A stretch of 38,106 nt of DNA, taken from positions 1-38,106 of IMG/VR virus record IMGVR_UViG_2660238120_000001. The stretch is one strand, 5' to 3'. Made by a program: the position numbers and the translations under genes. Below the pieces are notes generated by a model, which was not told the origin of the DNA, ran no database searches, and saw only the letters and a list, made by a program, of their open reading frames with translations. Positions 1-38,106 of this stretch are shown in pieces (the stretch's first letter is position 1; each line of letters begins with the position of its first letter). Source of the DNA: a virus.

Positions 1-501
1 AAAGTTAAACAATGGAGTCAAGCAACGCAACAGAAGTTAGGTTTAACTTTTAGTTCCATTCAAGCTATTCAAAAATTCTGTAATAACAACGTTGAAAAGT
101 GTAAACATATCGTACGTTTAATTTTAAATGCACGTAATGTTGTAGCTAAACAGAATCAAATTGCTAAAAGTGAGATTACACAATTTGAATCCAATCTAAA
201 TATAAAAAATGGACTGGCTAAACAACTAGACCATATCTTTTCATACGCTTTAAATTTACCCAAAAGTAACTATGCTGGATACGTAACTAACGCTTTAAAG
301 ACTTATTTCACTCAATCTTTCGGATTAGAAACTACCCAAGTTGTAAAGCCTAAAATGCATCAAGTGAAGTTTAACAATGGTCAAAAACACATTCATGAAG
401 AACTACCTGAATGGGCTAAAGATGATTATGTATATGTACCGGATAATAATATAGATTTAGAGAAAAAAGCTAAGTTAGAAAATATGTTAAAGGAAATTTA
501 A
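1..501 (+). CDS. repA: RepA_N-family plasmid replication initiator, 3' part (ORF starts at 37622 and crosses the circular junction; about 309 aa in total)
   Basis: Frame 1 is open from base 1 to TAA 499-501 and is in phase with ATG 37622 through the 56-nt overlap. The C-terminal tail reads HEELPEWAKDDY. Confidence 0.8.
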   Translation, partial: KVKQWSQATQQKLGLTFSSIQAIQKFCNNNVEKCKHIVRLILNARNVVAKQNQIAKSEITQFESNLNIKNGLAKQLDHIFSYALNLPKSNYAGYVTNALKTYFTQSFGLETTQVVKPKMHQVKFNNGQKHIHEELPEWAKDDYVYVPDNNIDLEKKAKLENMLKEI

Positions 502-514
502 AGGAGATATAAAT

Positions 515-721
515 ATGAATTATGCTGAAAATATGTAAAATAAATTAAAAAAAGAATTTAATTACTTTATAAAAGTTTTAAAAAAAGATTTTTTTAATGT
601 AAAAATATTTAGAGATGAAAACAAAATATGCATAATTGAGTATGCAGGAAAAGATTTTAAAAAAAATCTCGGAAATAAGTATATTGTTGTTTATATCATG
701 GAATTTACCTACAAAAAATAA
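515..721 (+). pseudogene. Short ORF after rep, interrupted by one in-frame TAA (536-538)
   Basis: A strong SD (AAGGAG, 502-507) precedes ATG 515. The 68-codon frame is open except for the TAA at codon 8: MNYAENM*NKLKKEFNYFIKVLKKDFFNVKIFRDENKICIIEYAGKDFKKNLGNKYIVVYIMEFTYKK. Confidence 0.3.
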
Positions 722-829
722 AAAAATAGATTTTGATAGTTTTGCTGCATCTTTTATGGTATCAGCGCAACTAAACTTTGCTAGAAATACTTTTTAGAGT
801 TAAAAATTTGCATTTAGTTTTAAGAATAA

Positions 830-870
830 AATAATCCTATAAGCTATTTTATATAGCCAATAGGATTATT
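830..870 (-). terminator. Long imperfect hairpin, possible minus-strand terminator
   Basis: The arms are AATAATCCTAT (830-840) and ATAGGATTATT (860-870), with inner pairing GCTAT/ATAGC. The tail is T-rich only on the minus strand (TTATTCTT). Confidence 0.4.
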
Positions 871-890
871 GTGAATAATATATTTATTAT

Positions 891-919
891 TTGACTTTTT
901 AACATTTTAATTAGATAAT
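891..919 (+). promoter_or_regulatory. Sigma-A type promoter for the small + strand ORF
   Basis: TTGACT (891-896), 17-nt spacer, GATAAT (914-919). Confidence 0.55.
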
Positions 920-968
920 GTTCAGTGAAATGTGCATGCTATATACTTTTTGAACAGAGGTGTTTATA

Positions 969-1142
969 ATGAAATTTAATCATATATTTAGCAAGGTTAA
1001 AAAACAAACTAATCTTAATAAAAAATTTATAAACAGCATCTCAAAATCCATCAATGATGGCGAAAAAGCTCAAAAAGATATGGAAAACGATTATCAAAAA
1101 CATAAAGCTAAAAATGAAAAAATTTTATCTATGTTTAAGTAA
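969..1142 (+). CDS. Small basic hydrophilic protein (57 aa), convergent with and overlapping the 3' end of the 283-aa cargo gene
   Basis: SD AGAGG (956-960) lies 8 nt before ATG 969, with its own promoter and terminator. I recognise no family. Confidence 0.5.
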   Translation: MKFNHIFSKVKKQTNLNKKFINSISKSINDGEKAQKDMENDYQKHKAKNEKILSMFK

Positions 1143-1986
1143 AGTAAATGGCAATGGGTTTAATTAACCTATTGCCTTTTTCTATTTTAAATAAATCATT
1201 TAGCAAAGTAAGGCTAAGGTTAGGCATCATATTTTCTATCCCTGATATATTTTTGAGTAAGTCATCTATTTCTTGACTATTTATGTCAACTATAGATTCT
1301 ACTCTTCCAAATATTGTCATTTTTCTATTTGTAAAGTTTATCATTGGTAACTGACTGTGACTCATTCTCATTTTTTGATCTTTTGCAATTATTATTGAGT
1401 TGTCTGCTTTTAACAAAGCAGAATCAGAATAGACTATGTTTAATACAGTGATTAAATTTTTCAGGTTTTCTGTACGCTTTTTATCCTGTTCAACTTCTTT
1501 TAAACTTTTATCTTCAGATATAGAAACATTTAAAAATGCTTCACTGTTATATAAATCTTTTAATTTTTTTAAATCTAAAATGTTAAACTGCGATCTAAAT
1601 TTAACTAATGCCCCTTCCTTTATTTTTCTATTTCTAATATTGTCTAACAATCTATCGTTAAGTTCATTTTCAATAACATTTAGAGCATAGTCTTCATATA
1701 CAGAATCTACTGCACTTTGATTTAAATTAGAATTACCTACTATATGTTCATGTTTTCCGGATATACCTGATTGTATTTGACCTTCAGATGTTAGAGGTAT
1801 TTTTAATTTAGCACTGCCTTTTGTATCTGTACTTACTGAATGGCCTTTTTTATTAGTTTTACTGTCTCCAACGGTAGAAGTTAATTTTGACGGATAGCCA
1901 TTTTTAATTTGAGCTAAGATGGAACTTATTTCTTGGTCGTCAAAGTAAATGTATTCGTTTATTTGTTTTTTTTCGCTTTCACTCAT
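1135..1986 (-). CDS. Hypothetical cargo protein (283 aa) between the lysis cassette and rep
   Basis: SD AGGAGGAA precedes ATG 1986. The gene is separated from the late operon by the terminator at 2172-2212 and is very AT-rich. It has a central Gly/Ser/Thr/Lys-rich segment. No family was recognised. Confidence 0.8.
   Translation of the reverse strand: MSESEKKQINEYIYFDDQEISSILAQIKNGYPSKLTSTVGDSKTNKKGHSVSTDTKGSAKLKIPLTSEGQIQSGISGKHEHIVGNSNLNQSAVDSVYEDYALNVIENELNDRLLDNIRNRKIKEGALVKFRSQFNILDLKKLKDLYNSEAFLNVSISEDKSLKEVEQDKKRTENLKNLITVLNIVYSDSALLKADNSIIIAKDQKMRMSHSQLPMINFTNRKMTIFGRVESIVDINSQEIDDLLKNISGIENMMPNLSLTLLNDLFKIEKGNRLIKPIAIYFT
1150..1181 (+). terminator. Rho-independent terminator of the small + ORF, lying inside the 3' coding end of the convergent gene
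   Basis: Stem GGCAATGGGT / ACCTATTGCC (one G-T pair), 7-nt loop, then TTTTT. Confidence 0.55.
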
Positions 1987-2171
1987 TCTATTCCTCCTAT
2001 TCGTATTATGATTAAAAGCACCAATAATTATATCTTAAAAATCAAAAAAATAAAATTGTAAAACTTATTTGACAAAAAATCATTCATTCAAGAAGGATAT
2101 TTTTATAGTGGTGTATTATAATACTTTAAAAATATCAATTATTATATGTTCTATAATTTTTACTATAAATT

Positions 2172-4157: not shown

Positions 4158-4159
4158 TT

Positions 4160-8840: not shown

Positions 8841-9811
8841 TATACATTCAACTCCAAATCTACCGTATAATCTCTATCGTTAAAATGGTGTGTGCTTTTA
8901 GTGATTAATAAGGATTTAGTACCTAAGCCCACTTCTTTCAAGCTTTGGCTTTTAATGATGCAAGCATTTCCAGCGACCAAATCGGTATGACCTACTGCGG
9001 TAACTTTCAAAGTGTTCTCTTCCTTACTTTTTTGCTTGAGTAATTGCTTGGCCCTAGCTTTAATCTGTGCCGGATTTGCTTTCTCTTTAGCTTTTTCAAT
9101 ATAAGTTAGTCTACCTAGCTTTTTAATTGAACTCGGCGAACTTTGAGCAGTGGCACTACTACGACCTTTTTTCTTTTTGCTGTCTTTAATGATTCTAACC
9201 ACATTAGCTGTATTTTCTATTGACCTGGATAAGTTAAAACTCTCCATTAGGCTCTTATCCCCTATAACTAGCTTTAACTGCTTGTAAGGAAATTTCCTAA
9301 GCTCTACAACGTTGTAATTAGCGTATAGATAAAAATGTTTATTAGTAGCTCGTTTGGTTTTAGCAATCGCTCCGCTCAACATGTCAAAATAACTTTTATT
9401 ATCGCAAACTTCGGCTTTTAGTTTTTCGCTTGATGTGGCCACCGTTTTAAATTTAACGCCTGCCATTTTTGCTACTTTTTCAAACCTTTGTGAAACGGTA
9501 GAGATAGGCATTACTAAGCTATCTTGATTTTTAAAATAGCGTAAAGCATCGTAAGCAGTAACGCTAAATGTTTCATCGCTACTATATTCATACTTAAATA
9601 CATAGCCATAAAAAATCTTCTTTTTGTTCCACTTTAAGCAAATTACATCCCCATTTCTAATCACAAAGCCCTCTTGCACTTCTAAAAGGTTAAAGGTTAA
9701 AGTCCCTGCTGCAAAGTTAGTAGTAGTTTCCCACTTAACGTTGTAAGCAAGTTCCCTAATGTCCCAAACCTTACTAGAATTTCTTTTTTTACATGTAAAT
9801 GTAGTAATCAT
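8840..9811 (-). CDS. Baseplate hub / late-control-D-like protein (XkdQ-like)
   Basis: Synteny after the tape measure and XkdP-position genes; size about 320 aa. Confidence 0.65.
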   Translation of the reverse strand: MITTFTCKKRNSSKVWDIRELAYNVKWETTTNFAAGTLTFNLLEVQEGFVIRNGDVICLKWNKKKIFYGYVFKYEYSSDETFSVTAYDALRYFKNQDSLVMPISTVSQRFEKVAKMAGVKFKTVATSSEKLKAEVCDNKSYFDMLSGAIAKTKRATNKHFYLYANYNVVELRKFPYKQLKLVIGDKSLMESFNLSRSIENTANVVRIIKDSKKKKGRSSATAQSSPSSIKKLGRLTYIEKAKEKANPAQIKARAKQLLKQKSKEENTLKVTAVGHTDLVAGNACIIKSQSLKEVGLGTKSLLITKSTHHFNDRDYTVDLELNV

Positions 9812-9814
9812 GGT

Positions 9815-10714
9815 TTAACCTCCAAAAGCATTAATCTTAGGAAACTTTGGCAAAGATTTATTATTCTCTTTAGGTTTAGACTTAGGGATGCTATGAGGAG
9901 ATTGAGGGGCTTTAGCGGTCTTATTATTAAAAATATCGGTTGGTTTAATAAATCCAATCGAACCACTAGGTACTTTAATCGGATGTTTATAGTGTGGTTG
10001 ATTTTCTTTTCTAAAAAAATATTGAGGTTGTAAATTATTGTCATGCTTAATCAAGTAAGACTTACTGGCTAATTTTTTCCTCATGGCACTTTTGCCATTC
10101 CCCACTTTTATATTATTGGCCACACTGCCAACACCTGTACCGCCTCGTTTACCAACGATTCTACCAGTAACGTTTTTATGTTTTTTATTATTAATTTTAA
10201 CTTTTGAGCCACGGCTTTTTTTGTGAGATGGCTTTTTCCTGGATTTGCCTTTTTTAGCAACCTTTTTCTTTTTACCAGTAGTTTTGAGCTTTTTAGCTTT
10301 AAACTTCTTAAATTCAGTAAAGGTTAGCGTACAAGCGTACTCTTTGGCATAACCATCTTTAAAACCATATTCAAAGTTGAGTGTGGCCCTTACCGATATA
10401 GAGGTAGTAGTTAAAACTACCCGGCAAGGCTTTTTAGATTTATAGATGTTATTTAGAAAAGAAATATATTTATTACCGTTAGATAAGGTATTTTTAGCAG
10501 TTAAGTAGTGGCAGTGCTTAATATCTATAGGAATAATTACATTGATACTAAAATCAATTAGCTTATTATCCCCAATTCTATTAACTTCTCCCAGCTTAAC
10601 TACAGTTTCCTTTTTGTCATCAGTCGTCTTTTTGATAGTCATCTCTGATGGTGCAACTGGTAATTCTATAGTTTTATTAAGGTGGTTGGTAATATAAACT
10701 CCAGCATTCCGCAT
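9815..10714 (-). CDS. XkdP-position tail protein with an extremely Lys-rich C-terminal half; no LysM seen
   Basis: Synteny only. The sequence KKFKAKKLKTTGKKKKVAKKGKSRKKPSHKKSRGSKVKINNKKHK is low-complexity and basic. Confidence 0.5.
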   Translation of the reverse strand: MRNAGVYITNHLNKTIELPVAPSEMTIKKTTDDKKETVVKLGEVNRIGDNKLIDFSINVIIPIDIKHCHYLTAKNTLSNGNKYISFLNNIYKSKKPCRVVLTTTSISVRATLNFEYGFKDGYAKEYACTLTFTEFKKFKAKKLKTTGKKKKVAKKGKSRKKPSHKKSRGSKVKINNKKHKNVTGRIVGKRGGTGVGSVANNIKVGNGKSAMRKKLASKSYLIKHDNNLQPQYFFRKENQPHYKHPIKVPSGSIGFIKPTDIFNNKTAKAPQSPHSIPKSKPKENNKSLPKFPKINAFGG

Positions 10715-25392: not shown

Positions 25393-26052
25393 TTTACCTT
25401 TTTTAGCTTTATCCCACTCTATTTTAGAATATATTGATAAAACTTCTCTCGTTCTGCTAACAATGCTCAATATATCATAATCAAAGTAATCGCTTGAAAT
25501 CATGTCATGATCAGTAGCTAGCATTTCTAGTATATAAATATTTTTATGTTCATTATCATATGGATATCTTAGTAGTTTGCACATTTTTTCAATATACCCA
25601 TTAAAAAAATCGTTTATATTATCAAATCCTAATTCTTGTAAACTAATATCTGACTTTTCAACAATATCCCTAGACATAATATTATTAGTAACCTTAGACG
25701 CTAAAAAACGATATTCTTTTAACTCTTGCAAATATTCAGTGTCGGCTTTACCTTTATGCTTTTTACCAGTCTTTTCAATGTTATTAAAATACATCATTAA
25801 TTTAGTAAGATTATAAATATAATCGTAATACTCTTCAGATTTATAAGGATAAGTACCTTTGCTGCTTTCGAACTTTAAAAGGGACTCTATATATCTAGCA
25901 GTATCTTCTCTTAAATTATTCAGCCAATCAATTCTGGACTTAGACTTAACATCCGAATTAATTTTCGCTCTGTTTAAATAAACGTTAATGATATTAGTGA
26001 TAAATGATGCAATGACAGTACCACTAATTACAGCACCTAAGAAATTATTCAT
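25390..26052 (-). CDS. Hypothetical protein with one N-terminal TM anchor (220 aa), cargo between recombinase and terS
   Basis: N-terminus FLGAVISGTVIASFITNIINVYLNR followed by a helical soluble part. AT-rich. The N-terminal module resembles that of the 33777..34877 product. Confidence 0.75.
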   Translation of the reverse strand: MNNFLGAVISGTVIASFITNIINVYLNRAKINSDVKSKSRIDWLNNLREDTARYIESLLKFESSKGTYPYKSEEYYDYIYNLTKLMMYFNNIEKTGKKHKGKADTEYLQELKEYRFLASKVTNNIMSRDIVEKSDISLQELGFDNINDFFNGYIEKMCKLLRYPYDNEHKNIYILEMLATDHDMISSDYFDYDILSIVSRTREVLSIYSKIEWDKAKKGK

Positions 26053-26064
26053 AACAAATTGCTC

Positions 26065-26988: not shown

Positions 26989-27085
26989 ATAGCTATCTCC
27001 TAACACATAGTATTTTTGTGTTTTACTTAATTATAGTATGTCTTGAAAATAGTATATAATACATTCGCTATTAAATCAACATTCT

Positions 27086-27116
27086 ACACATAGGATAATG
27101 TAATAATCCTATGTGT
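27086..27116. promoter_or_regulatory. 11-9-11 (or 12-7-12) inverted repeat upstream of the recombinase; candidate core recombination site
   Basis: ACACATAGGAT AATGTAATA ATCCTATGTGT. No T-run follows on either strand. Confidence 0.4.
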
Positions 27117-27118
27117 GA

Positions 27119-27244
27119 TTACTTCCTTAAACAAAAATAGTAAATAGCTACAAAAATCAAAATGATAACGGCAGATGACAAAATCATAATCATACTCAAA
27201 TCATTCAATGGCATATTCCACAACTCATCAAAAAGTTGTTTCAT
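27119..27244 (-). CDS. Possible 41-aa membrane peptide
   Basis: MKQLFDELWNMPLNDLSMIMILSSAVIILIFVAIYYFCLRK. ATG 27244 is coupled to the upstream stop. The ORF is below the track cut-off. Confidence 0.4.
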   Translation of the reverse strand: MKQLFDELWNMPLNDLSMIMILSSAVIILIFVAIYYFCLRK

Positions 27245-27248
27245 CTCA

Positions 27249-27521
27249 TCAACCCCTAAATTTTAAAATAGTTGCTAATATTTTATTGTCTGGATCAGCT
27301 ACATCAATTTCAGCACTGGTTTTAGTATAACTATTAACACTAGCTGTATTTAATAGCTGCTTTTTCAAAGCATTAGCAAGTTTAGGGATGTTAAGCGCCT
27401 TGAACACTGATTGCATAATACTTTGAAATAAAGAATTATCAAAAATAATCTCATCTTTAAAAACGCAATCAACCGTTAAAACGCCTTGACCATACCTAAT
27501 ATAGACATTATCTTCACTCAT
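27249..27521 (-). CDS. Hypothetical protein (90 aa)
   Basis: ORF with SD GAGGGA. Confidence 0.65.
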   Translation of the reverse strand: MSEDNVYIRYGQGVLTVDCVFKDEIIFDNSLFQSIMQSVFKALNIPKLANALKKQLLNTASVNSYTKTSAEIDVADPDNKILATILKFRG

Positions 27522-27572
27522 TTTTATCCCTCATTCCGCTATATGTTAAGTTTTGTTAAGTTTTCAATAGAT

Positions 27573-27848
27573 TTAGTTAAAATCTCTGTCGATTAAAACG
27601 TAATTGTTTTTAAATTCATCAGATTTACAACATGTATAATCTAGCATTCCATGTTTAATGACATAGTCGCCTATGGCACACGTATGACTGCCAAACGGAC
27701 TATGTACGGTTAAGTTTCTATTTTCATTAGTGCTAAAGGCTTTTAATTCCATAGAACCAACGTTTTTAATCAAAGTATTGCGGAAACCGTCCCACTTAAA
27801 AGCATTAACAACGTTAGATTTTCGTTTATATAGATTAATTAAAAACAC
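27573..27848 (-). CDS. Hypothetical protein (about 88-91 aa)
   Basis: ORF whose listed GTG lies inside SD AGGAGGTG. An in-frame ATT at 27837-27839 has ideal spacing. Confidence 0.65.
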   Translation of the reverse strand: MFLINLYKRKSNVVNAFKWDGFRNTLIKNVGSMELKAFSTNENRNLTVHSPFGSHTCAIGDYVIKHGMLDYTCCKSDEFKNNYVLIDRDFN

Positions 27849-27921
27849 CTCCTGGTATCATTGTATTTTTTTATTATTTTATTTTTATAAGTTAAAGTAA
27901 GCTGATACATTTTTATGTAAC

Positions 27922-27955
27922 AAAAAAAGGGCTGGTAAACACCAGTCCTTTTTAA
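27922..27955 (-). terminator. Bidirectional-looking rho-independent terminator downstream of the RinA-family gene
   Basis: AAAAAAAGGGCTGGT, AAAC, ACCAGTCCTTTTT. Confidence 0.7.
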
Positions 27956-28109
27956 GAATGTCGATTCAAAATATTTACAATAAGCAAAGTTACAGTAGGA
28001 TTTGTTAATTCACATTAGCAAAAGTTTTCAATTAGCAAATAACTAATCGCTAACTAACACCATACATAATATAACACATAACTACCCCCAATTTTTACCC
28101 AATTTTTAC

Positions 28110-28586
28110 TCAATTATGTTGATGCTTTTTAAGTCGCATTTCTTTCTCGTATTCATCCCGCTCGATTATATGGTGCATCCCCATATACTTCATAATGTCT
28201 TTTAATAGCTTTTTGCGTTGCTTATATAAATTGTTGTTGGCATAGCCATGATTTAAACCAATTCGCCTAAACGATTTATGGTTGTAGTGGTCAAAGTAAT
28301 ACTCTTTTACTACTTCGGCAAACGCTGGCTCACATCTAGCTAGTGCATCTTCTATTGCTGCTTTTTGAAATAAGAATTGTGAGATGAACTTGCTATCTTC
28401 AATTTTGAGTAATAATAGTTCCGCTTTAGCCTCTTTACTACCACTAGCAGTTCCACCTCCCACATTATCATCCCTACCAGCTATGTAAGGGTGTGCAATC
28501 TCTTGACGTTTCCTAGCTATATATCTTGGTATATTTGGATAATCTCTAAGTATGTGTTCCATGAAATTTACAGTATCTTTGTTCAT
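28110..28586 (-). CDS. rinA: Late-gene transcriptional activator, RinA family
   Basis: LRDYPNIPRYI, EIAHPY, GGG, and KEYYFDHYN match the DYPN...EYYF pattern of RinA. It is the last gene of the early operon. Confidence 0.78.
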   Translation of the reverse strand: MNKDTVNFMEHILRDYPNIPRYIARKRQEIAHPYIAGRDDNVGGGTASGSKEAKAELLLLKIEDSKFISQFLFQKAAIEDALARCEPAFAEVVKEYYFDHYNHKSFRRIGLNHGYANNNLYKQRKKLLKDIMKYMGMHHIIERDEYEKEMRLKKHQHN

Positions 28587-28588
28587 TT

Positions 28589-29044
28589 TTAGCCCCCTAC
28601 CTTGATTCTATTTATCTTCTTTACTCTGTACATCTTATAGCGCCCTTGTATTAGTTTGCTACTGGATAGCGCATTGCTTAGTTGCCTATGAGTAAATTCA
28701 ACCCCTAAGTTTTCAAGGGCCTCAGATAAATCTTTAAATCCTTTGAATATTTTTTTATGTCTAGTACAAGTATCTTCAATCACGATATATCTAACCACTA
28801 GCTTATTAACTCGGATTATTCGGCTAACGCTAGTGGGGTTTAAATTCATGTACTTAGCTATGTCTTTAACTCGATAACCTAAATCTAACAATTCAGCAAC
28901 CTTTGCAGTATTTTCATTAACTTCTGCATTTTTAACCATTTCGGCTATTCTTTTAACTCTAGGATCATCACTACTCACATTTTTAAGGCTGCCCTCTTGA
29001 TACTCCAACTGATAAACAGCTTGTAGTATTGGATTGTTCTTCAC
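28589..29044 (-). CDS. HTH DNA-binding protein
   Basis: VKDIAKYMNLNPTSVSRIIRVNKL looks like a helix-turn-helix. Confidence 0.6.
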   Translation of the reverse strand: MKNNPILQAVYQLEYQEGSLKNVSSDDPRVKRIAEMVKNAEVNENTAKVAELLDLGYRVKDIAKYMNLNPTSVSRIIRVNKLVVRYIVIEDTCTRHKKIFKGFKDLSEALENLGVEFTHRQLSNALSSSKLIQGRYKMYRVKKINRIKVGG

Positions 29045-29047
29045 AAC

Positions 29048-29761
29048 TCATCCCCCATTTGTGTATTTTATTGGTTCTCCCATATGCACATCGTATTTTT
29101 GATTTAATCTACCTAAATGCAATCTTTTAGATAGTTCTTTATCAACTCTTACGCCTGTTAAGACGTATTTATCTAAAAAGGTCTTAATACCTATAGTGTG
29201 CTGCATATTATGATGCTCATAGCAAAGTGGTAATACTGTATAGCCAATATGTACCATTTTCTGTCGATTAGCGCCCATCCCAATAGCGTGAACGTGTGCT
29301 ACTTGCATTTTATGGCCACATATACAACATTTTTTATTGTTTAAGCAGTTTATCTCCCAACCGTAACTATCTTTAGCAATATCTAAAGCCTTACTAGCAA
29401 ACTCAACATCCCACTCTAAGCAAATATTAACTAAGTAATCTATAAAGTTATTAGCAATGGTTACAGTGCAGTTACTTAACGAAAACATTTCTTGGTGGTG
29501 TTGTTTACAAAAATTACGCTTTAGTTCTTGCTTAATTGTTTCTAAGTCCATTTGCATGGTTTTAGTTATTGAGTTCAATAGTGCGTATATTTTCCGCTGC
29601 TGCTTATAACTAATAATTCTTTTATCGTCAAAATCCAGCTCTAAATAATTGCCAATATTATTTTTAAATAAATTGGATTCGTGTACATCAATATCATCTA
29701 GTTTTAAAACTATAGTATTTTCTTGATGGTTAAACGCCTTTATTTCGCCAAAGTATTTCAT
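29048..29761 (-). CDS. Putative HNH-type nuclease (Cys/His cluster)
   Basis: CCICGHKMQVAHVHAIGMGANR...LPLCYEHHNMQH. Confidence 0.5.
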   Translation of the reverse strand: MKYFGEIKAFNHQENTIVLKLDDIDVHESNLFKNNIGNYLELDFDDKRIISYKQQRKIYALLNSITKTMQMDLETIKQELKRNFCKQHHQEMFSLSNCTVTIANNFIDYLVNICLEWDVEFASKALDIAKDSYGWEINCLNNKKCCICGHKMQVAHVHAIGMGANRQKMVHIGYTVLPLCYEHHNMQHTIGIKTFLDKYVLTGVRVDKELSKRLHLGRLNQKYDVHMGEPIKYTNGG

Positions 29762-29782
29762 TGCTATAGCTCCTATACTTAG

Positions 29783-29855
29783 TTCAATCGATTTTCAATC
29801 AAATAATGGCCTTTAAATTAACGTTTATATTATTTTTCAATCGATTTTCAATCAA
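29783..29855. repeat. Two perfect 20-bp direct repeats, each made of two TTCAATC units
   Basis: TTCAATCGATTTTCAATCAA occurs at 29783-29802 and 29836-29855, a period of 53 bp, in an intergenic position. Confidence 0.85.
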
Positions 29856-30154
29856 TAATCTTTGATGCTTTCTGCCAATTCATAAACGATTTTCAATATT
29901 CTGTAGTCAATAACGGGATGTTTACTAAAAAAAGTCATCCCATCAGACTGAATCCCAATAAAAACATGTCTATAATCTTTTGTTTTAGCCCACTCAATAT
30001 CAGCAAGATAAATTGTATTTGATACTGTACTTTTGAAAAACTTAACTTGTTCTCCAGCTGTATTACTATATTTAGATAATCTATCATTAGCATTTAAAAT
30101 GGCTTGCTTAACGCTCTCGTTACTCATAATTATTAATTTATTGTTTTTACTCAT
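29852..30154 (-). CDS. Hypothetical early protein (100 aa)
   Basis: ORF in the early operon. Confidence 0.65.
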   Translation of the reverse strand: MSKNNKLIIMSNESVKQAILNANDRLSKYSNTAGEQVKFFKSTVSNTIYLADIEWAKTKDYRHVFIGIQSDGMTFFSKHPVIDYRILKIVYELAESIKDY

Positions 30155-30160
30155 GATTGA

Positions 30161-30406
30161 TTAAACGTCCTCCGCTGGTATTTGATTCTCTACCACATAC
30201 TCAACATAAGCATCTGTATGAGTAGCAAAGCCACCGCCAAATTGCTGGCCATGTTTAGTCAGTAGTTTTATTGCTTGGCTATGGTTCATTTCAAAGGCGT
30301 TTTTAGGGTTGGCATTGGTAAACATTCTATGCTTTTTACAATGCACATAGTTTTTAGTTCTCTGTTCATCATAAAAGTAAACTACAAAATCTTTTTTAAT
30401 AGGCAC
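30161..30406 (-). CDS. Hypothetical early protein (81 aa)
   Basis: ORF in the early operon. Confidence 0.65.
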   Translation of the reverse strand: MPIKKDFVVYFYDEQRTKNYVHCKKHRMFTNANPKNAFEMNHSQAIKLLTKHGQQFGGGFATHTDAYVEYVVENQIPAEDV

Positions 30407-30710
30407 TAACTAAATCCTCCTTAAAATTATCAATTTTTAACAATCTCTGATTAGCACTAGCTATATATAACCTAGAAATCAATTCTCTTAAATCTGGATT
30501 ATCTTTTAGGCTTGATTTATATAAAATCTTAAACAACTTAAAAGCCTCTTGATGATTTAAAACCACTCTGTCTACATAAGGGTTTAAGAACTTATCTAGC
30601 TCTTTAACAGAGTTTTTAGGTCTGATTAGTCTATAAGTATTAAACTCATCATAGAATTGCTTATATCCAAATTCTGATGCTATTAAATGCTTTATATTTT
30701 GTAAGTTCAC
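30396..30710 (-). CDS. Hypothetical early protein (104 aa)
   Basis: GTG start with SD AGGAGGG at 7-nt spacing. Confidence 0.65.
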   Translation of the reverse strand: MNLQNIKHLIASEFGYKQFYDEFNTYRLIRPKNSVKELDKFLNPYVDRVVLNHQEAFKLFKILYKSSLKDNPDLRELISRLYIASANQRLLKIDNFKEDLVSAY

Positions 30711-30739
30711 AAATCATCCCTCCTAACAAAAAATTGTCA

Positions 30740-31555
30740 TTACATATCTTTAAGCTGCTGTTGTAATTCAGCTTTTTTACTTGCATCAATATGTTCTTTA
30801 GGTGGTTTGTAATCATCCCTGGCCCAATTAGGTAAGCTCTCTTTAACAGATTTCTTTTTATTAACTTTTCTATTAGTAATGGTGCTTTTGTTCCTACTGT
30901 TCATATAAGCATCAGCACTCTTAACGTCTGTAACGTTATGTTTTTGCCAATCTTTTAATATTTTTGATAAATACGAAAAGCTGGTTTGTACAGTTACTCC
31001 GTTAGATGCAGCTACATTCACTGCATGATTAAACAAATCTTGGCCATATTCTTTTATTAAATTTATCAGTTTTCGTTTTAAAACTTTGTTCAGTTCTGGC
31101 CATACTGATTTGTAAAATTTCAGTGCGCTTTCTTCCTCTTCTTCTTTATTAAATAATCTATTAGATAATCTTTTATCTTGGACATTTTTGTCGTAAGGTG
31201 TAGACAATTTTGTCGTGGGGTATGGATATGTTCGTCCACACCCCCTAGACATTTTTGTCGATAGGGTAATATATCTTTTTTCTATTTCTTTTGAATCTTT
31301 TTTATAAATTATTTCAACATTTATAAGACCAACATCTCTTAGCTTACTAATGGATCTAGAAACAGACCTAGTAGTTACTTCTACTCCTTCGGCTAATTTT
31401 GCGTTACTCATAAAACAAACATCGACAATATTTAACATGGTATAAATTTGTGAGTAGATAATTTTATCTGTAGAGTTAAGACCTTTACCTGTTAAATTTT
31501 CTATCGGCATTTGGATAAATTTATTTGGAGTTGTAATTTGATTATTTGTGGCCAT
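30740..31555 (-). CDS. Phage replisome organizer / DnaD-like replication initiator
   Basis: N-terminal winged-helix region (AKLAEGVEVTTRSVSRSISKLRDVGLI). C-terminal DnaD-type motif FSYLSKILKDWQKHNVT. Tail LPNWARDDY. Confidence 0.8.
   Translation of the reverse strand: MATNNQITTPNKFIQMPIENLTGKGLNSTDKIIYSQIYTMLNIVDVCFMSNAKLAEGVEVTTRSVSRSISKLRDVGLINVEIIYKKDSKEIEKRYITLSTKMSRGCGRTYPYPTTKLSTPYDKNVQDKRLSNRLFNKEEEEESALKFYKSVWPELNKVLKRKLINLIKEYGQDLFNHAVNVAASNGVTVQTSFSYLSKILKDWQKHNVTDVKSADAYMNSRNKSTITNRKVNKKKSVKESLPNWARDDYKPPKEHIDASKKAELQQQLKDM
31181..31260. repeat. Iteron cluster inside the organizer gene (candidate lytic origin)
   Basis: GACATTTTTGTCG at 31181-31193, GACAATTTTGTCG at 31203-31215 and GACATTTTTGTCG at 31248-31260. 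An inverted repeat GGGGTATGG / CCACACCCC lies between them. Confidence 0.7.
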
Positions 31556-31561
31556 ACCGTT

Positions 31562-31825
31562 TCACCCTCTTGCTTTATTAAGTTTAAAATCATCATGTGT
31601 TTTATATGCTGTTTTTATAACTTCAGTCAATATTCTATGCAGCAATTCTTTATGACATATTTCATTATCACTTATCCAATTTTTTTGTATTGGAAAAGCA
31701 TTAAAGTCAACTCCATAAGCTTTACAAAGATTTTTAGATAAGTTCATCACAAAATCTTCTTTTTTACTAAAGTGTTCATTATTTAATCCAATTAATTTAT
31801 TTTCATTAAAACTATACTTTGACAT
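31562..31825 (-). CDS. Hypothetical early protein (87 aa)
   Basis: ORF with SD AAAGAGGTGA. Confidence 0.65.
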   Translation of the reverse strand: MSKYSFNENKLIGLNNEHFSKKEDFVMNLSKNLCKAYGVDFNAFPIQKNWISDNEICHKELLHRILTEVIKTAYKTHDDFKLNKARG

Positions 31826-31872: not shown

Positions 31873-32109
31873 CTAATCAAAAAATAAACGTTGAGGGGTA
31901 TCTTTCAAAACATATGAAATTATAGCTATTTCATAATCATGAAAAGGATATATTCCTCTTTCTTTAAGTTCATACTGTCTTCTACTAGAACCTATACAAT
32001 TACCTAGGTATTCTGTTGATAATTCATTACTTAACCTAACTTTTCTCAGGTTATATTTAGGCTTTAGCCATTCATTTCTTAAATCTTGTTTTTTTACTTT
32101 TAAATTCAA
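31873..32109 (-). CDS. Cro-like XRE-family HTH regulator
   Basis: LRKVRLSNELSTEYLGNCIGSSRRQYELKERG; divergent from the repressor gene. Confidence 0.75.
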   Translation of the reverse strand: MNLKVKKQDLRNEWLKPKYNLRKVRLSNELSTEYLGNCIGSSRRQYELKERGIYPFHDYEIAIISYVLKDTPQRLFFD

Positions 32110-32273
32110 AATATCTCAAATCCTTTCGCAATATATAAACTTTATACATATAACAATATGTATATCTCAACGTAATTATCACAAACTGTGATATTATTGT
32201 CAATGATTTTATTCTTTTATGAGATATTTATTTACTTATGAGATATTTATGTTAATATTAATTTTGTTGGGAG
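32110..32273. promoter_or_regulatory. Genetic switch region: divergent promoters plus repeated operators
   Basis: The minus-strand promoter is TTGACA (32198-32203), 17-nt spacer, GATAAT (32175-32180). Palindrome TATCACA-AAC-TGTGATA lies at 32177-32193. The (A/T)TGAGATAT motif occurs at 32111-32119, 32163-32171, 32219-32227 and 32238-32246. Confidence 0.65.
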
Positions 32274-32645
32274 GTGATTACTATTGTTCCCAAAAATATG
32301 TTAGGCCCTATTATCAAAAATATAAGAAAAGAAAAACATATGACGCAAAATCAGTTAAGTGAGATTACTGGTTATAAACAAAACACGATTTCTCAGCACG
32401 AGGGGCAGAAAAGAGAGCTCGGAGAAAGTGATTTGAGAACATATGCAAATGCTTTTGGGATAACGCCTCAACACTTTTATGACAGGCTTAGTGGTAGTAG
32501 TGAACAAATAGCCAAAATGATAGCGGATAATAAAAATAAAGATGATACAAAGAAATCGCTTTTGAACATAATAGATCGCTTAACTGTTGAAGAACGACAA
32601 TCTGTATTAGAATTTGCTAGATTTAAACTAAGTCAACATAAATAA
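32274..32645 (+). CDS. CI-like repressor, XRE HTH, no S24 peptidase domain
   Basis: IRKEKHMTQNQLSEITGYKQNTISQHEGQKR. The start is uncertain because the GTG is embedded in SD GGGAGGTG; ATT 32283 is well spaced. Confidence 0.8.
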   Translation: MITIVPKNMLGPIIKNIRKEKHMTQNQLSEITGYKQNTISQHEGQKRELGESDLRTYANAFGITPQHFYDRLSGSSEQIAKMIADNKNKDDTKKSLLNIIDRLTVEERQSVLEFARFKLSQHK

Positions 32646-32778: not shown

Positions 32779-33552
32779 ATGGTAAACTTAATATTATTTT
32801 ACATAATACTATCATTACTATTAATATCCACTGTAACTTTTGGAATTATTTGGTATAAAAGCAACAGAGAAAAAAAGAGTTTATTTTTCAAACTATTCAT
32901 CGGAAGTTTAATTAGTGCTATAGGACTAGCAATAACTCCCGCAATGCACGATTTAATTGCAGGAATAGGAATACTAGCCGTAATGGTTTCCATAATCTAT
33001 ATTTACATGGTAAGCAAAGGAAAAGCAACAAACGTGTTTTTAAAGTATTCTATCATGAGTATTGTGATAGGAGCTTTATTTACAGTAATGGGATTCTGCT
33101 TTAAAAGTTATTCACAACAAGGATTAGATAGAGAAGCAGCAATAACTAAATCTATTTCAGAAGATGCTAATTCTAGTAGCTCTTCTGAATCAAAGAAAGA
33201 AAAAGAAAGTGAAAAGGACCAAAAAGATTTAGAAAACGCTAACTATTTAGGATATAAGTATATGCTGGAAGATGTTCCAAAAAACACTAATCATGTGATA
33301 ACAAAAGCATATATGGATAAGGATAAAAACTATAATACGACCATCTTTGTAAACGATCAAATTTCTTCATTAAGCGGTTCTGAACTGAAACGATATGTAA
33401 AAGTTGTTTTTGATAAAGTTAAAAAATTAGAAGATGGATATGAACCTAACGAAAAATCTGGAGCAAGTAGAATAATAATAAATGATTCATCCGGCAACAG
33501 ATTAGCACATTCTTCATTTTTTACTAGAAAAATAAAATATGATTTTGAATAA
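32779..33552 (+). CDS. Polytopic membrane protein with Ser-rich linker and C-terminal soluble domain; candidate superinfection-exclusion protein
   Basis: Four N-terminal TM helices. It sits immediately after the repressor on the lysogeny strand, with its own SD TGGAGGAA. Confidence 0.75.
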   Translation: MVNLILFYIILSLLLISTVTFGIIWYKSNREKKSLFFKLFIGSLISAIGLAITPAMHDLIAGIGILAVMVSIIYIYMVSKGKATNVFLKYSIMSIVIGALFTVMGFCFKSYSQQGLDREAAITKSISEDANSSSSSESKKEKESEKDQKDLENANYLGYKYMLEDVPKNTNHVITKAYMDKDKNYNTTIFVNDQISSLSGSELKRYVKVVFDKVKKLEDGYEPNEKSGASRIIINDSSGNRLAHSSFFTRKIKYDFE

Positions 33553-33743: not shown

Positions 33744-33778
33744 TAAAAAAGCCCATATCATTAAGATATAGGCTTTTT
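33744..33778 (-). terminator. Terminator of the 366-aa membrane protein gene
   Basis: On the minus strand: AAAAAGCCTATATC, TTAAT, GATATGGGCTTTTTT. Confidence 0.7.
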
Positions 33779-34877
33779 AACATTTATAAAAATCATGAGA
33801 TATTTTGTTTGATGGAAAACCAAAGGATTTACTTAGAAATGAATTAATAAAATTAAAATAAATATCTAATAGCGGAAAAAATATAACGGCATTAGACTTA
33901 TTATCGGTAAAAAGACATATCAAAAAAATGGACACCACACCGTACCTTACAGAGTATGAGAAAAATTTAATCAAATGTTGTTTTCTTTTAAAAAGCTTTA
34001 AAAATTTTTCTATCAATAAAGATAGTCTTCTGAATTTAATATATTGTGATATCGTTCTTACATTTGCACTACATGCTTTTATAATTAATGTAATCTCAAT
34101 AGGTATATATATCAAAAAAGCAAAACAAAGTGGTGAAGCCAAAAGACTACTAATGACATAGTGAAAATCACTAAAAAAATGGCCTTTAGAAGTTAAAAAA
34201 TATATAATATGTGTTAAATATTTCCATTGTAAAGTTTGATAAATAAGCATTAACAAAGAAATTATGAAAAAAGCTTTCGAAATATCAAAAGATATTATAC
34301 TACTACCATTTTTTACAAAATGAAAATATTGCTTTTGAAGATAATCTATGTCATTAGCATTTAAGGTAGTAAAGTCGCAAACTTTATAAACAAGACTTAC
34401 AGCTTTTTTATCTTCTTCACTAGTTTTTACAAAACAGGATAATTTATTCATAATACTATTTTTAACATCTCGAGTATTCCAATCAGATTTTAATAAAATC
34501 CTACATAGCTGTCTAAAAACAAATCTTTCATTTGCACCTCTAACATACATGTTTCTCCTTATATTAATAAGTCTATTTGATAACAAATAATGATAATAAA
34601 ATAAGCAGACATCATCTATTTCTAGATATCTATTTGCTGTTCTTTCATCAAATAGTTTATTATCCATTCCTCTAGTTGCACTTAAGCAAGTCCTAAATAG
34701 TTCTAAATCTTGACGACTTATTTCAGTCTTTTGAGATAGTTTGTATAAGTCTGCCCTCCATTCCGATTCACTATGTATAGATGATTTTTCACTATTTATT
34801 CTATTAAAAACGGCAGTTATTATAGCTGCTACAACACTTCCAGTAATTAAACTAGTCACGAAACTCATACCAAACAA
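33777..34877 (-). CDS. Hypothetical cargo protein: N-terminal TM anchor, about 180-aa soluble part, C-terminal multi-TM domain (366 aa)
   Basis: This looks like the most AT-rich gene of the window. It has its own promoter and terminators on both sides. N-terminal module SLITGSVVAAIITAVFNRIN....W. Confidence 0.75.
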   Translation of the reverse strand: MFGMSFVTSLITGSVVAAIITAVFNRINSEKSSIHSESEWRADLYKLSQKTEISRQDLELFRTCLSATRGMDNKLFDERTANRYLEIDDVCLFYYHYLLSNRLINIRRNMYVRGANERFVFRQLCRILLKSDWNTRDVKNSIMNKLSCFVKTSEEDKKAVSLVYKVCDFTTLNANDIDYLQKQYFHFVKNGSSIISFDISKAFFIISLLMLIYQTLQWKYLTHIIYFLTSKGHFFSDFHYVISSLLASPLCFAFLIYIPIEITLIIKACSANVRTISQYIKFRRLSLLIEKFLKLFKRKQHLIKFFSYSVRYGVVSIFLICLFTDNKSNAVIFFPLLDIYFNFINSFLSKSFGFPSNKISHDFYKC

Positions 34878-34965: not shown

Positions 34966-35025
34966 GATGAAGTTATAGTTTGGTATTATTTAACGATTCA
35001 TATCTAATTTTAAAGTTATCTAATT

Positions 35026-35035
35026 TAATGTATAA
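35026..35035 (+). promoter_or_regulatory. Extended -10 promoter (TGTATAAT) for the toxin mRNA
   Basis: AATGTATAAT lies about 100 nt upstream of the toxin ATG. Confidence 0.4.
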
Positions 35036-35135
35036 TAACGTCTAGTAGAGAAGTTAATGGACGGTGGCTGTCTTTTTCCCGAAGAGGTGATTTCTATGGA
35101 AATATGGAATAATCTACAGAAAGGTTTCACAGCCA

Positions 35136-35222
35136 ATGAGTGTTTTTCAAGCACTTAGTTTGATGTTTATGTTTGGTATGTTTATTTTAGCATTGCTAAC
35201 ATACATCAGTAATCATAAATAA
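35136..35222 (+). CDS. Type I toxin, holin-like toxin (Hol_Tox-type) hydrophobic peptide, 28 aa
   Basis: MSVFQALSLMFMFGMFILALLTYISNHK matches the (D/E/Q)AL.LM..FG.F...L pattern of this peptide family. It has a long 3' UTR with a terminator. Confidence 0.7.
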   Translation: MSVFQALSLMFMFGMFILALLTYISNHK

Positions 35223-35348
35223 AAAAGCCGTCCCATTATATAACTTTGACCGGTTATGGGATAGCTTTCAATAGTTTTTCGTAACTTAGTCACCGTCTTT
35301 TAAACGGCTTTACTTGAAAGTCCTGTTACAGCAGGGCTTTTTATTTAC
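35221..35348 (-). ncRNA. Candidate antitoxin antisense RNA overlapping the toxin 3' UTR
   Basis: The minus-strand promoter is ATGACA (35378-35383), 17-nt spacer, TATACT (35355-35360). The minus-strand terminator hairpin is at 35227-35265, followed by T6 (35221-35226). Confidence 0.35.
35317..35346 (+). terminator. Terminator of the toxin mRNA
   Basis: AAAGTCCTG, loop, CAGGGCTTT, then TTATTT. Confidence 0.65.
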
Positions 35349-35452
35349 AAACATAGTATATAACACATTATTTTATTTGTCATTTATTTAATTTACGTTA
35401 TACATTTATTCACTCATACATAAAACATTACCTATTCTAGTATTTTTTTACT

Positions 35453-36048: not shown

Positions 36049-36056
36049 CTATATTA

Positions 36057-36335
36057 TCACTCCATAAAAACATTGTATTTACGTTTTTCAGAATCTGAAG
36101 CCTCAGCAATATATTTGTCAGCTAACAACTGAATAACTTCATAATCGTAAGTTAATCCATTGATCATTTTAATTGCATCGATAGATTTCTTTTGTATTTC
36201 AGAAACCTTAATATTTTTTCTGTGTTGTTCAACTTTTTTTGGTGTTTTTTTAGCTGTATTTTTTATCTTTTTTTCATCAAATGAACTTTTAGGCGTAAAA
36301 TTGCCAGCTTTTCTAAACATTGTACTTTTAGCCAT
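36057..36335 (-). CDS. Small basic protein directly after parA; candidate centromere-binding adaptor (RepC/PrgO-position)
   Basis: Basic disordered N-terminus, then NIKVSEIQKKSIDAIKMINGL... (a strand-helix-helix look). Confidence 0.7.
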   Translation of the reverse strand: MAKSTMFRKAGNFTPKSSFDEKKIKNTAKKTPKKVEQHRKNIKVSEIQKKSIDAIKMINGLTYDYEVIQLLADKYIAEASDSEKRKYNVFME

Positions 36336-36346
36336 TGTGTACTCCC

Positions 36347-37201: not shown

Positions 37202-37234
37202 TAAATCAGCCCCTTTAACAATATTATATCACAA

Positions 37235-37322
37235 AGATACATGGCTACATAGCTCTAAAGATACAAAGGTACAAGGGTACATTTATCTTTTGATACATGG
37301 ATACAAGGGTACATAGATACAT
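37235..37322. repeat. Array A of phased 8-bp repeats (consensus RGNTACAW), 9 of 11 octads match
   Basis: AGATACAT GGCTACAT agctctaa AGATACAA AGGTACAA GGGTACAT ttatcttt TGATACAT GGATACAA GGGTACAT AGATACAT. The array abuts the parA -10 region. Confidence 0.85.
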
Positions 37323-37370
37323 TCAATTTTTAAAATATTGATATAAAGGCTATATAAGCTGTTTAGCCAA

Positions 37371-37442
37371 AGATACATGTAGCTTCTGATACATAGATAC
37401 AAGGGTACATAGATACATAGATACATAGATACATGGCTACAT
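37371..37442. repeat. Array B of phased 8-bp repeats, 8 of 9 octads match
   Basis: AGATACAT gtagcttc TGATACAT AGATACAA GGGTACAT AGATACAT AGATACAT AGATACAT GGCTACAT. Confidence 0.85.
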
Positions 37443-37456
37443 AATAAATTAGTGGT

Positions 37457-37485
37457 TTGACAAAGCCAGCTTTATAAGGTTTAAT
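37457..37485 (+). promoter_or_regulatory. Candidate rep promoter
   Basis: TTGACA (37457-37462), 17-nt spacer, TTTAAT (37480-37485). Confidence 0.45.
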
Positions 37486-37493
37486 TAATGTAA

Positions 37494-37572
37494 ATAAAAA
37501 AGCAGTCATCCACGGGCATGGATAACTGCTTAAAATAATTACATAACAATCAAATTGTGTGTTTTCAAATCA
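37494..37572 (-). ncRNA. Candidate countertranscript (antisense RNA) against the rep mRNA leader
   Basis: The minus-strand promoter is TTGAAT (37602-37607), 17-nt spacer, TATAAT (37579-37584). The 12-bp hairpin at 37501-37530 is followed by a T-run only on the minus strand. Confidence 0.45.
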
Positions 37573-37621
37573 ATACATATTATAACATGATTGTTATGTA
37601 TATTCAAAAGGAGAATGTACT

Positions 37622-38106
37622 ATGAACAGTCAATTTATTAAACTCTACATAGAATTTGAAGAACAAGGTTTAAATCCAACTGAGGTATCTATAATGTCTC
37701 ATCTCTATAATTATGGGGAATTAAGCCTTAAAAATAATTGGATTAAAAATGGCATGGTTTTCGTGAAATACCTACGTGAGTCCTTAGCCGACCAAATCAA
37801 TGTTTCTAAAGATACCATTACTCGTACTGTTAAAAGTTTAGAAGATAAAGGCTGGATCATTGCCAAGCGACAACGTAACGCTGCAACTATCTACTTTTTA
37901 CCTCAATATGAGTTCAATTCATCAGTTAGGAAAACGCAAATTGCAACCCCGGAAAACGCAAATTGCAACCAGAACTATACTAATTTAAATAAACTACATG
38001 CTAATACAGTTAATACAGGGTCAGCAGCTAAAAATGAATCCGTAGTGGATAAAGTTAAACAATGGAGTCAAGCAACGCAACAGAAGTTAGGTTTAACTTT
38101 TAGTTC
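37622..38106 (+). CDS. repA: RepA_N-family plasmid replication initiator, 5' part (continues at base 57 after the 56-nt overlap)
   Basis: SD AAGGAG at 37608-37613. LNPTEVSIMSHLYNYGELSLKNNWIKNGMVFVKYLRESLADQINVSKDTITRTVKSLEDKGWI fits the RepA_N N-terminal pattern. Confidence 0.85.
   Translation, partial: MNSQFIKLYIEFEEQGLNPTEVSIMSHLYNYGELSLKNNWIKNGMVFVKYLRESLADQINVSKDTITRTVKSLEDKGWIIAKRQRNAATIYFLPQYEFNSSVRKTQIATPENANCNQNYTNLNKLHANTVNTGSAAKNESVVDKVKQWSQATQQKLGLTFS
37929..37970. repeat. Two 20-bp direct repeats inside rep (candidate plasmid oriV)
   Basis: GGAAAACGCAAATTGCAACC at 37929-37948 and 37951-37970, a period of 22 bp. Confidence 0.8.
38051..38106. repeat. 56-nt copy of bases 1-56 (contig closure overlap)
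   Basis: Base-for-base identity, in frame with rep. Confidence 0.95.

Follow-up and report, generated by a model that had tools for sequence, protein, structure and literature searches.

A probable phage-plasmid with a RepA_N replicon in the type strain of Apilactobacillus ozensis

How a temperate phage without a phage-type integrase is kept in its host is the question raised by the viral record IMGVR_UViG_2660238120_000001, a stretch of 38,106 nucleotides that was analyzed over its full length (here, the window). It encodes a temperate myovirus together with a plasmid maintenance block, and because of this combination we read it as a phage-plasmid. Most probably, the window is the complete 38,050-bp genome of such an element from the flower bacterium Apilactobacillus ozensis (strain DSM 23829), i.e., a prophage kept as a low-copy circular plasmid; from its gene content we infer plasmid lysogeny in this strain as well as the production and infectivity of virions. 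The reading is carried by a collinear, closed plasmid of Apilactobacillus apisilvae, by the published phage-plasmids of Apilactobacillus kunkeei, and by the affiliation of its recombinase with a plasmid family. An earlier note on this DNA, made from the sequence without database searches, had already taken it for a phage-plasmid. It proposed a single circular unit of about 38,050 bp with a complete PBSX-like virion and lysis gene set and a CI/Cro switch, in which the usual int slot is filled by a RepA_N initiator, a ParA operon with 8-bp arrays between divergent rep and parA, and a type I toxin. These claims held up in the analyses described below; a few of its further details did not and are corrected where they arise.

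Source and circularity of the element

The window was traced by an exact match of its recombinase (protein KRM69238.1) to a 38,106-bp contig of A. ozensis DSM 23829 (= JCM 17196). The same recombinase protein is encoded on BBAX01000007.1, a 38,105-bp contig from a second assembly of strain JCM 17196, and on Logan contigs of the runs ERR433479 and DRR017677. The DNA (33% G+C) is that of a cultured isolate, not of a virome, and in three assemblies from two culture collections the element forms a separate contig of ~38 kb.

Bases 1 to 56 are identical to bases 38051 to 38106, with no longer match between prefix and suffix, and removal of one 56-bp copy leaves a unit of 38,050 bp. A 309-amino-acid (aa) open reading frame (ORF), rep, starts at position 37622, continues in frame across the junction, and stops at position 501. 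Both observations had been made in the earlier note and are exact. By itself, the 56-bp overlap proves nothing, because it is placed on a repeat shared with the rep gene of a coresident plasmid. It belongs to a 72-bp exact repeat (window positions 38035 to 38050 plus 1 to 56) found again at positions 10312 to 10383 of locus L007, in the rep gene on NODE_132, a 159-kb plasmid contig of the same strain; the repeat is embedded in ~540 bp over which the two rep genes are 88% identical. The 72-bp repeat fixes the contig ends in two assemblies. The Logan contig of ERR433479 corresponds to window positions 27 to 38064, the unique unitig for k = 31 bounded by the repeat, and the window ends as expected for k = 57, for which k − 1 is 56. 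The overlap is hence probably the assembler's own, arising at a repeat-induced branch point, and on its own is compatible with either free circles or one cointegrate holding two copies of the repeat.

Independent evidence came from BBAX01000007.1. This contig aligns in one piece from window position 30349 through 38050/1 to 4526, with 0 mismatches and 45 gap openings that we take to be homopolymer sequencing errors. It crosses the window junction and has its own break ~4.5 kb away, so that two assemblies with different break points are each continuous over the break of the other; NODE_132 is also continuous, through its own copy of the 72-bp repeat. Because BBAX01000007.1 spans the junction and NODE_132 reads through its own copy, the unit must be circular or circularly permuted, and a 38,050-bp unit of this kind is confirmed. 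Circularity alone does not tell whether the DNA is a plasmid or a phage genome in replication or in packaged form.

At the DNA level, no close relative is known among phage and plasmid records: the sole megablast hits against these were two stretches, one at 73% within the tape-measure gene and one at 79% in the toxin region, and a 110-bp pattern spanning the junction had no exact match in IMG/VR.

A plasmid maintenance block and a plasmid-type recombinase

The window encodes only one recombinase, a tyrosine recombinase, and no phage-type integrase in the sense of a protein of ~350 to 400 aa that lies beside attP and the repressor and is related to phage integrases. What occupies the slot can be seen by comparison with KC5a, an integrative myovirus of Lactobacillus gasseri. 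KC5a has the nearest capsid among isolated phages (59% identity) and the same order of structural genes but, in contrast to the window, carries a 373-aa integrase between endolysin and repressor and lacks rep, par, and toxin-antitoxin genes. In the window, the place of the KC5a integrase is taken by a DUF6414 gene, rep, par, the toxin-antitoxin locus, and two unknown genes. The phage φAQ113 (phiAQ113), which has no annotated integrase, was uninformative for this comparison. The plasmid replication and partition genes by which phage-plasmids are recognized (Pfeifer et al. 2021) are present as a RepA_N Rep, a ParA, and repeat arrays.

The recombinase had been described in the earlier note as small, next to terS, and far from the immunity region. 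Only the last part stood: the protein has 313 aa, one gene separates it from terS, and it is 5 kb from the repressor. Matches to the recombinase were found in 2,225 plasmid records from Lactobacillales and relatives, many of them 5 to 15 kb in size. Its homologs in a protein search are mostly ~195 aa long, and the recombinase aligns to these ~195-aa plasmid genes over nearly its whole length; in the one plasmid examined in detail, the gene encodes 196 aa with 48 to 66% identity over two aligned pieces. The best matches in phage records reached 23 to 32% identity over 52 to 74% of the length. By these comparisons the protein is assigned to the 195-aa "integrase" family of lactic-acid-bacterial plasmids, not to the phage integrases.

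Relative to the 195-aa form, the window recombinase is lengthened by a tandem duplication of the first ~120 residues. Residues 7 to 124 and 144 to 245 each correspond in alignments to the first 119 residues of the short form and share 30% identity with one another (E = 4e-13); in our reading, the box I arginine motif LLRVSD is kept only in the first copy and lost in the second. The long form was found in only four protein clusters, three of them on contigs of 38 to 39 kb and one on a 1.3-kb fragment. In some NCBI annotations, the recombinase as called comprises no more than its last 183 to 192 residues. An AlphaFold model computed from a 37-sequence alignment (mean predicted local distance difference test score [pLDDT] 56.9, predicted template modeling score [pTM] 0.37) did not reach the quality needed for a fold search. 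The protein is a candidate multimer resolvase by analogy with Cre and the recombinases of plasmids, a role on which PMC7969092 makes a general statement. Upstream of its promoter lies a 14-bp inverted repeat, with a third half-site near the ribosome-binding site of the gene (region 27005 to 27116). The A. apisilvae plasmid p2unnamed has the same layout (positions 655 to 790), with the sequence changed in all three copies together; the inverted repeat may be an autoregulatory binding site or a recombination site.

By profile comparison, Rep is a RepA_N initiator at the family level. All of its 16 homologs come from Apilactobacillus, and several bear the name replication initiator protein A. Of the 17 sequences that make up the family together with the window Rep, 13 match both PF06970 and PF18008. 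The family profile matched the PDB entries 4PT7, 5KBJ, 4PQL, and 4PTA at E values of 4e-16 to 3e-15, the first three, at 4e-16, being solved RepA_N domains of the pSK41/pTZ2162 RepA; the next best match, MarR, followed at 5e-4, twelve orders of magnitude behind RepA_N. The closest Rep (86% identity) is on a 39-kb contig of Apilactobacillus xinyiensis. The two domains of the protein have different affinities. Against the Rep encoded on a 114-kb plasmid contig of A. ozensis, identity is 29% in the N-terminal domain but 86% in the C-terminal domain; against the A. apisilvae phage-plasmid Rep, it is 67% and 20%, respectively. The C-terminal domain is thus conserved by host rather than by plasmid lineage, in line with what is known of RepA_N replicons, which combine an in-gene origin with a host-matched C-terminal domain (PMC5703833). 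The 72-bp exact repeat within the 88% identical region points to a recent exchange of the Rep C-terminal domain with the coresident plasmid.

A candidate origin lies in the rep linker, where a direct repeat of 20 to 22 bp is present in two exact copies. The two 22-bp repeats, each containing the 9-bp palindrome GCAAATTGC, are translated in two different frames, as would be expected if selection acts on the DNA and not on the encoded protein, and imperfect copies with the same 22-bp spacing are present in the A. xinyiensis and A. apisilvae relatives. They are candidate Rep boxes and a candidate oriV. On the opposite strand, a candidate antisense RNA against the rep leader is delimited by a promoter-like site with an extended −10 element (TTGAAT-17-TG-TATAAT, 37607 to 37579) and a terminator hairpin (37531 to 37500) followed by a T-run. 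Four phage-plasmids have it in common, 7 of the 12 stem pairs showing compensatory changes, and it may act on the rep leader. According to a 2017 review, antisense control at the rep leader was known only in staphylococcal RepA_N plasmids (PMC5703833). An ordinary A. ozensis RepA_N plasmid (locus L004) has another rep leader, itself conserved, in which a terminator-like hairpin directly precedes the ribosome-binding site.

The last 41 codons of rep (376 to 498) and of the DnaD-like gene of the early operon (30740 to 30862, minus strand) encode homologous tails, (E/S)LP(E/N)WA(K/R)DDY ... KKA(K/E)L, with 46% identity (E = 1e-8). Both proteins may use it as a common docking peptide on a host replication factor. 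That a pSK41-like antisense copy control operates here, outside the staphylococci, and that both initiators dock on or compete for the same host factor, is a possibility we put forward as doubtful.

Divergent from rep, a Walker-type partition ATPase is encoded. This ParA is 76% identical to that of A. apisilvae p1unnamed, 65% to that of an A. kunkeei phage-plasmid, and 25 to 28% to the products of plasmid genes annotated prgP; its best NCBIfam model is PrgP, with 161 bits against a 400-bit cutoff. Between parA and rep, the 8-bp units are all in one 8-bp register, with 13 strict matches in 260 bp versus 11 on the same strand in the other 37.8 kb, and no second 8-bp periodic array was found elsewhere in the window. 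The arrays are a candidate centromere and operator. Comparable 8-bp arrays are present in the A. kunkeei and A. apisilvae relatives and on an ordinary A. ozensis plasmid. In the latter (L004), a RepA_N plasmid, they consist of GTAGTGCT and lie between parA and rep; arrays and rep leader together take up 9340 to 9650 and 9760 to 10000.

Instead of the single small third protein proposed in the earlier note, three small basic proteins follow ParA. The first, of 92 aa, is 52% identical to the product of the gene after soj in the A. kunkeei phage-plasmid and matches no Pfam or NCBIfam family; it is a candidate centromere-binding partner, a ribbon-helix-helix protein as judged by eye. The other two are DUF5388 proteins, ~39% identical to those of the coresident plasmid. 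The GTAGTGCT repeats of that plasmid, sought as the DUF5388 target, are absent from the window, and no mention of DUF5388 was found in the literature.

The block is completed by a type I toxin-antitoxin locus. The toxin RNA, preceded by a promoter-like site at 35009 to 35036, scores 53.5 bits against Rfam rli28 (gathering score, 45) and encodes a 28-aa hydrophobic peptide, which is ComI-like at 41 bits, under the 55-bit cutoff; the megablast match of this region was to a gene annotated "putative holin-like toxin." Opposite, a RatA-like antitoxin RNA overlaps the 3′ end of the toxin mRNA. It scores 47 bits against Rfam RatA (gathering score, 49), and the RNAs at the matching place in A. apisilvae and A. 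xinyiensis exceed the gathering score (61.7 and 49.2 bits, respectively). A hydrophobic peptide with a convergent, 3′-overlapping antisense RNA corresponds to a predicted TxpA/RatA-like type I layout.

Relatives and alternative readings

The closest counterpart of the whole element is p2unnamed of A. apisilvae SG5_A10 (NZ_CP093364.1, 38,616 bp), a plasmid closed into a circle as part of a complete genome. In common with the window it has the gene order over the whole element, from recombinase to early genes, with ~40 shared proteins at 30 to 81% aa identity, the recombinase at the same place, and a holin-like toxin with a RatA RNA. It differs in having a Rep that is only 40% identical, with another C-terminal domain, an AbiH gene in place of DUF6414, one small gene after parA rather than three, and a terL split into two coding sequences, and it has no nucleotide-level similarity to the window. 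The same A. apisilvae strain has a second, different phage-plasmid, p1unnamed (NZ_CP093363.1, 42.7 kb), in which a gene for an RNA-directed DNA polymerase adjoins the tail fiber gene.

For the phage-plasmids of A. kunkeei (e.g., OX335181.1), Dyrhage et al. 2022 (PMC9648514) report read coverage that does not exceed that of the chromosome, and they assign the elements to two groups of Pfeifer et al. 2021, pLP39 and p48; pLP39 is a Lactobacillus-dominated community of predicted phage-plasmids (PMC7969092). The A. kunkeei elements resemble the window in size (30 to 41 kb), in having repA beside parA with similar 8-bp arrays and a related ParA and partner, and in their myovirus genes, which are of the same families. 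In contrast, their Rep is only 27 to 29% identical, they lack a homolog of the recombinase, and their early region contains helicase and tRNA genes, two of the latter in one A. kunkeei phage-plasmid (14367 to 14602); no tRNA gene was found in the window. The modules of the window are mosaic, Rep being nearest to A. xinyiensis, ParA to A. apisilvae p1unnamed and A. kunkeei, and TerL to A. apisilvae p2unnamed.

The replicon itself resembles those of pSK41, pAD1, and pCF10 in its RepA_N winged helix, repeats in the central part of rep, host-conserved C-terminal domain, and divergent ParA-type gene with a putative small partner, and resembles pSK41 also in the candidate counter-transcribed RNA against the rep leader (~83 nucleotides in pSK41). 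Unlike these theta replicons, it sits in a phage genome. The earlier note had recognized in the block the layout of pAD1-type plasmids. This was correct as to architecture: pAD1 too has 8-bp iterons and a type I toxin-antitoxin locus, and rep and parA are divergent. The likeness does not extend to membership. The pAD1 iteron is TAGTARRR (printed as TAGTRRR in one paper), different from the window repeat GATACATR; the window has one array region and no second array after the operon; its antitoxin is RatA-like and not a pAD1 par RNA II; its ParA, at the score given above, does not qualify as an equivalog of PrgP/RepB; and Pfam and NCBIfam returned no RepC/PrgO match for its proteins. In its predicted general organization the element recalls the model phage-plasmid P1 (PMC7969092): both keep plasmid replication apart from lytic replication, partition by a ParA-type system, carry an addiction module, encode a tyrosine recombinase for which a role in resolving multimers has been proposed, and package DNA by headful. 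P1 differs in having no sequence relationship, a host of a different phylum, a genome 2.5 times larger, and a type II rather than type I toxin-antitoxin system.

Several points weigh against the phage-plasmid reading. The window Rep taken alone stays just under the Pfam cutoffs, with 27.9 to 29.3 bits for RepA_N (PF06970; cutoff, 30) and 23.9 bits for Bac_RepA_C (cutoff, 25), and its MarR score exceeds its RepA_N score. A circular assembly would also be expected from an excised or replicating integrative phage or from headful-packaged virion DNA, a tyrosine recombinase is present in the element, and as of 2021 no member of the Lactobacillus phage-plasmid community had been confirmed by experiment as a phage-plasmid (PMC7969092).

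The last of these points also bears on the alternative that survives best, although we consider it unlikely, namely, that the element is a plasmid with a defective or domesticated prophage, a producer of tailocin-like or PBSX-like particles without infectious virions. Its tail and terminase genes are indeed of the PBSX type, and the split terL of the A. apisilvae relative would fit this reading. In the window, however, the virion, packaging, and lysis genes are all full-length ORFs in an Illumina-based contig. By capsid, the nearest isolated Lactobacillus phages are KC5a, phiAQ113, and phi jlb1, with 51 to 59% identity, and their genomes of 36 to 38 kb agree with the size of the element.

Less probable still is that a temperate phage of the integrative kind was sampled while excised or replicating as a circle, with the tyrosine recombinase, which has a Phage_integrase domain, as its integrase, and with rep and par as accessory genes or remnants. 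Circular "plasmid" records can be excised prophages: the 39.8-kb Lactobacillus buchneri "plasmid unnamed2" (NZ_CP043616.1), whose capsid is nearer to that of the window (61%) than the capsid of any other plasmid record, carries in the classical slot an integrase of 386 aa, its feature table lists neither rep nor par, and it is probably an integrative prophage that was deposited as a plasmid in its excised form. The window recombinase, by contrast, is close to the packaging genes and not beside the repressor; its family is spread over plasmids, small ones included, and is matched weakly by phage records; and the same gene occurs at the same place on the closed, extrachromosomal A. apisilvae plasmid. 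Moreover, the element is joined to chromosomal DNA in none of the assemblies, and relatives, too, have kept its rep, par, and toxin-antitoxin modules intact.

We give hardly any weight to the idea that the window is a segment of a larger cointegrate with the coresident RepA_N plasmid and its circle an artifact of the de Bruijn graph: the contig ends do coincide with the repeat common to NODE_132, the Logan contig is exactly the repeat-bounded unitig, and the ~540-bp similarity could support recombination, but BBAX01000007.1 reads through the repeat with phage-plasmid sequence on both sides and a different break point, NODE_132 reads through its own copy, and the contig amounts to one unit plus overlap in two assemblies.

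Phage genes, a model of the life cycle, and implications

PHROG and Pfam matches cover the full set of phage functions, i.e., packaging, virion, lysis, and lysogeny control (Table 1). The structural module contains, in order, terS, terL (PBSX family), portal, minor head protein, scaffold, major capsid, and connectors/adaptors; sheath, tube, XkdN-like chaperone, tape measure, and LysM and baseplate proteins; and fiber, two holins, and a GH25 endolysin (271 aa). The lysogeny switch consists of a helix-turn-helix (HTH) repressor and a divergent Cro-like gene with 19-bp repeats between them. For the 257-aa and 366-aa proteins encoded between the immunity gene and the toxin-antitoxin locus, no informative match was found in Pfam, PHROGs, NCBIfam, or PADLOC. 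The slot between endolysin and rep is variable, containing DUF6414 here (no PADLOC match) and AbiH in two relatives (A. apisilvae p2unnamed, 25706 to 27352; L005, 8708 to 10330), which suggests a site for defense-gene cargo.

TABLE 1 Features of the 38,106-bp window
Feature	Position	Strand	Basis or remarks
Terminal overlap	1-56 (= 38051-38106)	none	Part of 72-bp exact repeat 38035-38106
repA, 5′ part: RepA_N winged-helix N-terminal domain and linker	37622-38106	+	ORF resumes at base 57 of the circle
repA, 3′ part: Bac_RepA_C-like C-terminal domain and stop	1-501	+	Domain comparison
Two 22-bp direct repeats, GGAAAACGCAAATTGCAACC	37929-37970	none	In rep linker; candidate Rep boxes/oriV
Candidate antisense RNA against rep leader	37497-37607	-	Promoter-like site and terminator hairpin; predicted RNA 37572-37497
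8-bp unit arrays (GATACATR/GGTACAWR), ~20 units in three clusters	37236-37443	none	Between parA and rep
parA, Walker-type partition ATPase, 284 aa	36347-37201	-	AAA_31, 1.3e-36
92-aa basic protein	36057-36335	-	First gene after parA; may bind the centromere as partner of ParA
Two tandem DUF5388 genes, 99 and 98 aa	35453-36048	-	Family found after ParA on ordinary Apilactobacillus plasmids
Type I toxin mRNA	35022-35345	+	Rfam rli28; 3′ end (35345) set by eye
Toxin ORF, 28-aa hydrophobic peptide, MSVFQALSLMFMFGMFILALLTYISNHK	35136-35222	+	Within toxin mRNA
Convergent RatA-like antitoxin RNA	35268-35383 (RNA 35358-35268)	-	Promoter-like site 35383-35355
366-aa protein	33777-34877	-	Between immunity gene and toxin-antitoxin locus
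257-aa membrane protein	32779-33552	+	Between immunity gene and toxin-antitoxin locus
Lysogeny switch	31873-32645	both	Repressor and divergent Cro-like gene
CI-like HTH repressor, 123 aa	32274-32645	+	HTH_19/HTH_3; PHROG repressor families
19-bp repeats between repressor and Cro-like gene	32208-32250	none	Repeat search
Cro-like gene, 78 aa	31873-32109	-	50% identical to XRE regulator of A. apisilvae p2unnamed
Early operon	27249-31825	-	Pfam/PHROG matches
DnaD/DnaB_2-like replication protein	30740-31555	-	Early operon
HNHc_6 nuclease	29048-29761	-	Early operon
PHROG transcriptional-regulator homolog	28110-28586	-	Early operon; DUF722 in precomputed Pfam hits
14-bp inverted repeat	27086-27116	none	Upstream of recombinase promoter
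Tyrosine recombinase, 313 aa	26065-27006	-	Phage_integrase domain; lactic-acid-bacterial plasmid family
Packaging, head, contractile-tail, and lysis module	2266-25336	-	PHROG and Pfam matches; collinear with A. apisilvae and A. kunkeei relatives
DUF6414 gene	1135-1986	-	Slot between endolysin and rep

Taken together, these genes suggest a life cycle in which each binding and regulatory step is deduced from sequence. During lysogeny, the CI-like repressor would silence the leftward early operon, and the RepA_N initiator would bind the two in-gene 22-bp boxes for theta replication, drawing in the host replisome through its host-matched C-terminal domain; the counter-transcribed RNA against the rep leader would probably limit Rep synthesis. 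ParA and its small DNA-binding partner would segregate the copies via the 8-bp arrays, multimers would probably be resolved by the plasmid-type tyrosine recombinase, and the type I toxin with its RatA-like antisense RNA would kill or arrest cells that lose the element. Upon induction, the early operon with the DnaD-like replication protein would take over, the PBSX-family terminase would package the DNA by headful, and the holins and GH25 lysin would release the virions.

For scans of genomes, the element carries a caution: a terminal direct repeat of a contig can be a k-mer overlap at a repeat common to another replicon, and such repeats need an independent check. It is also a clear example of module exchange, with a Rep whose C-terminal part is near-identical to that of a coresident plasmid and whose N-terminal part is like that of other phage-plasmids. 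The kind of element it represents has already been described in Apilactobacillus, and close relatives are known in bee lactobacilli. Its main use lies in its being carried by an available type strain. Lactobacillaceae phage-plasmids are known almost only from sequence, and because this strain is held in two public collections (DSM 23829 = JCM 17196), curing, induction, copy-number, and incompatibility experiments are directly possible.

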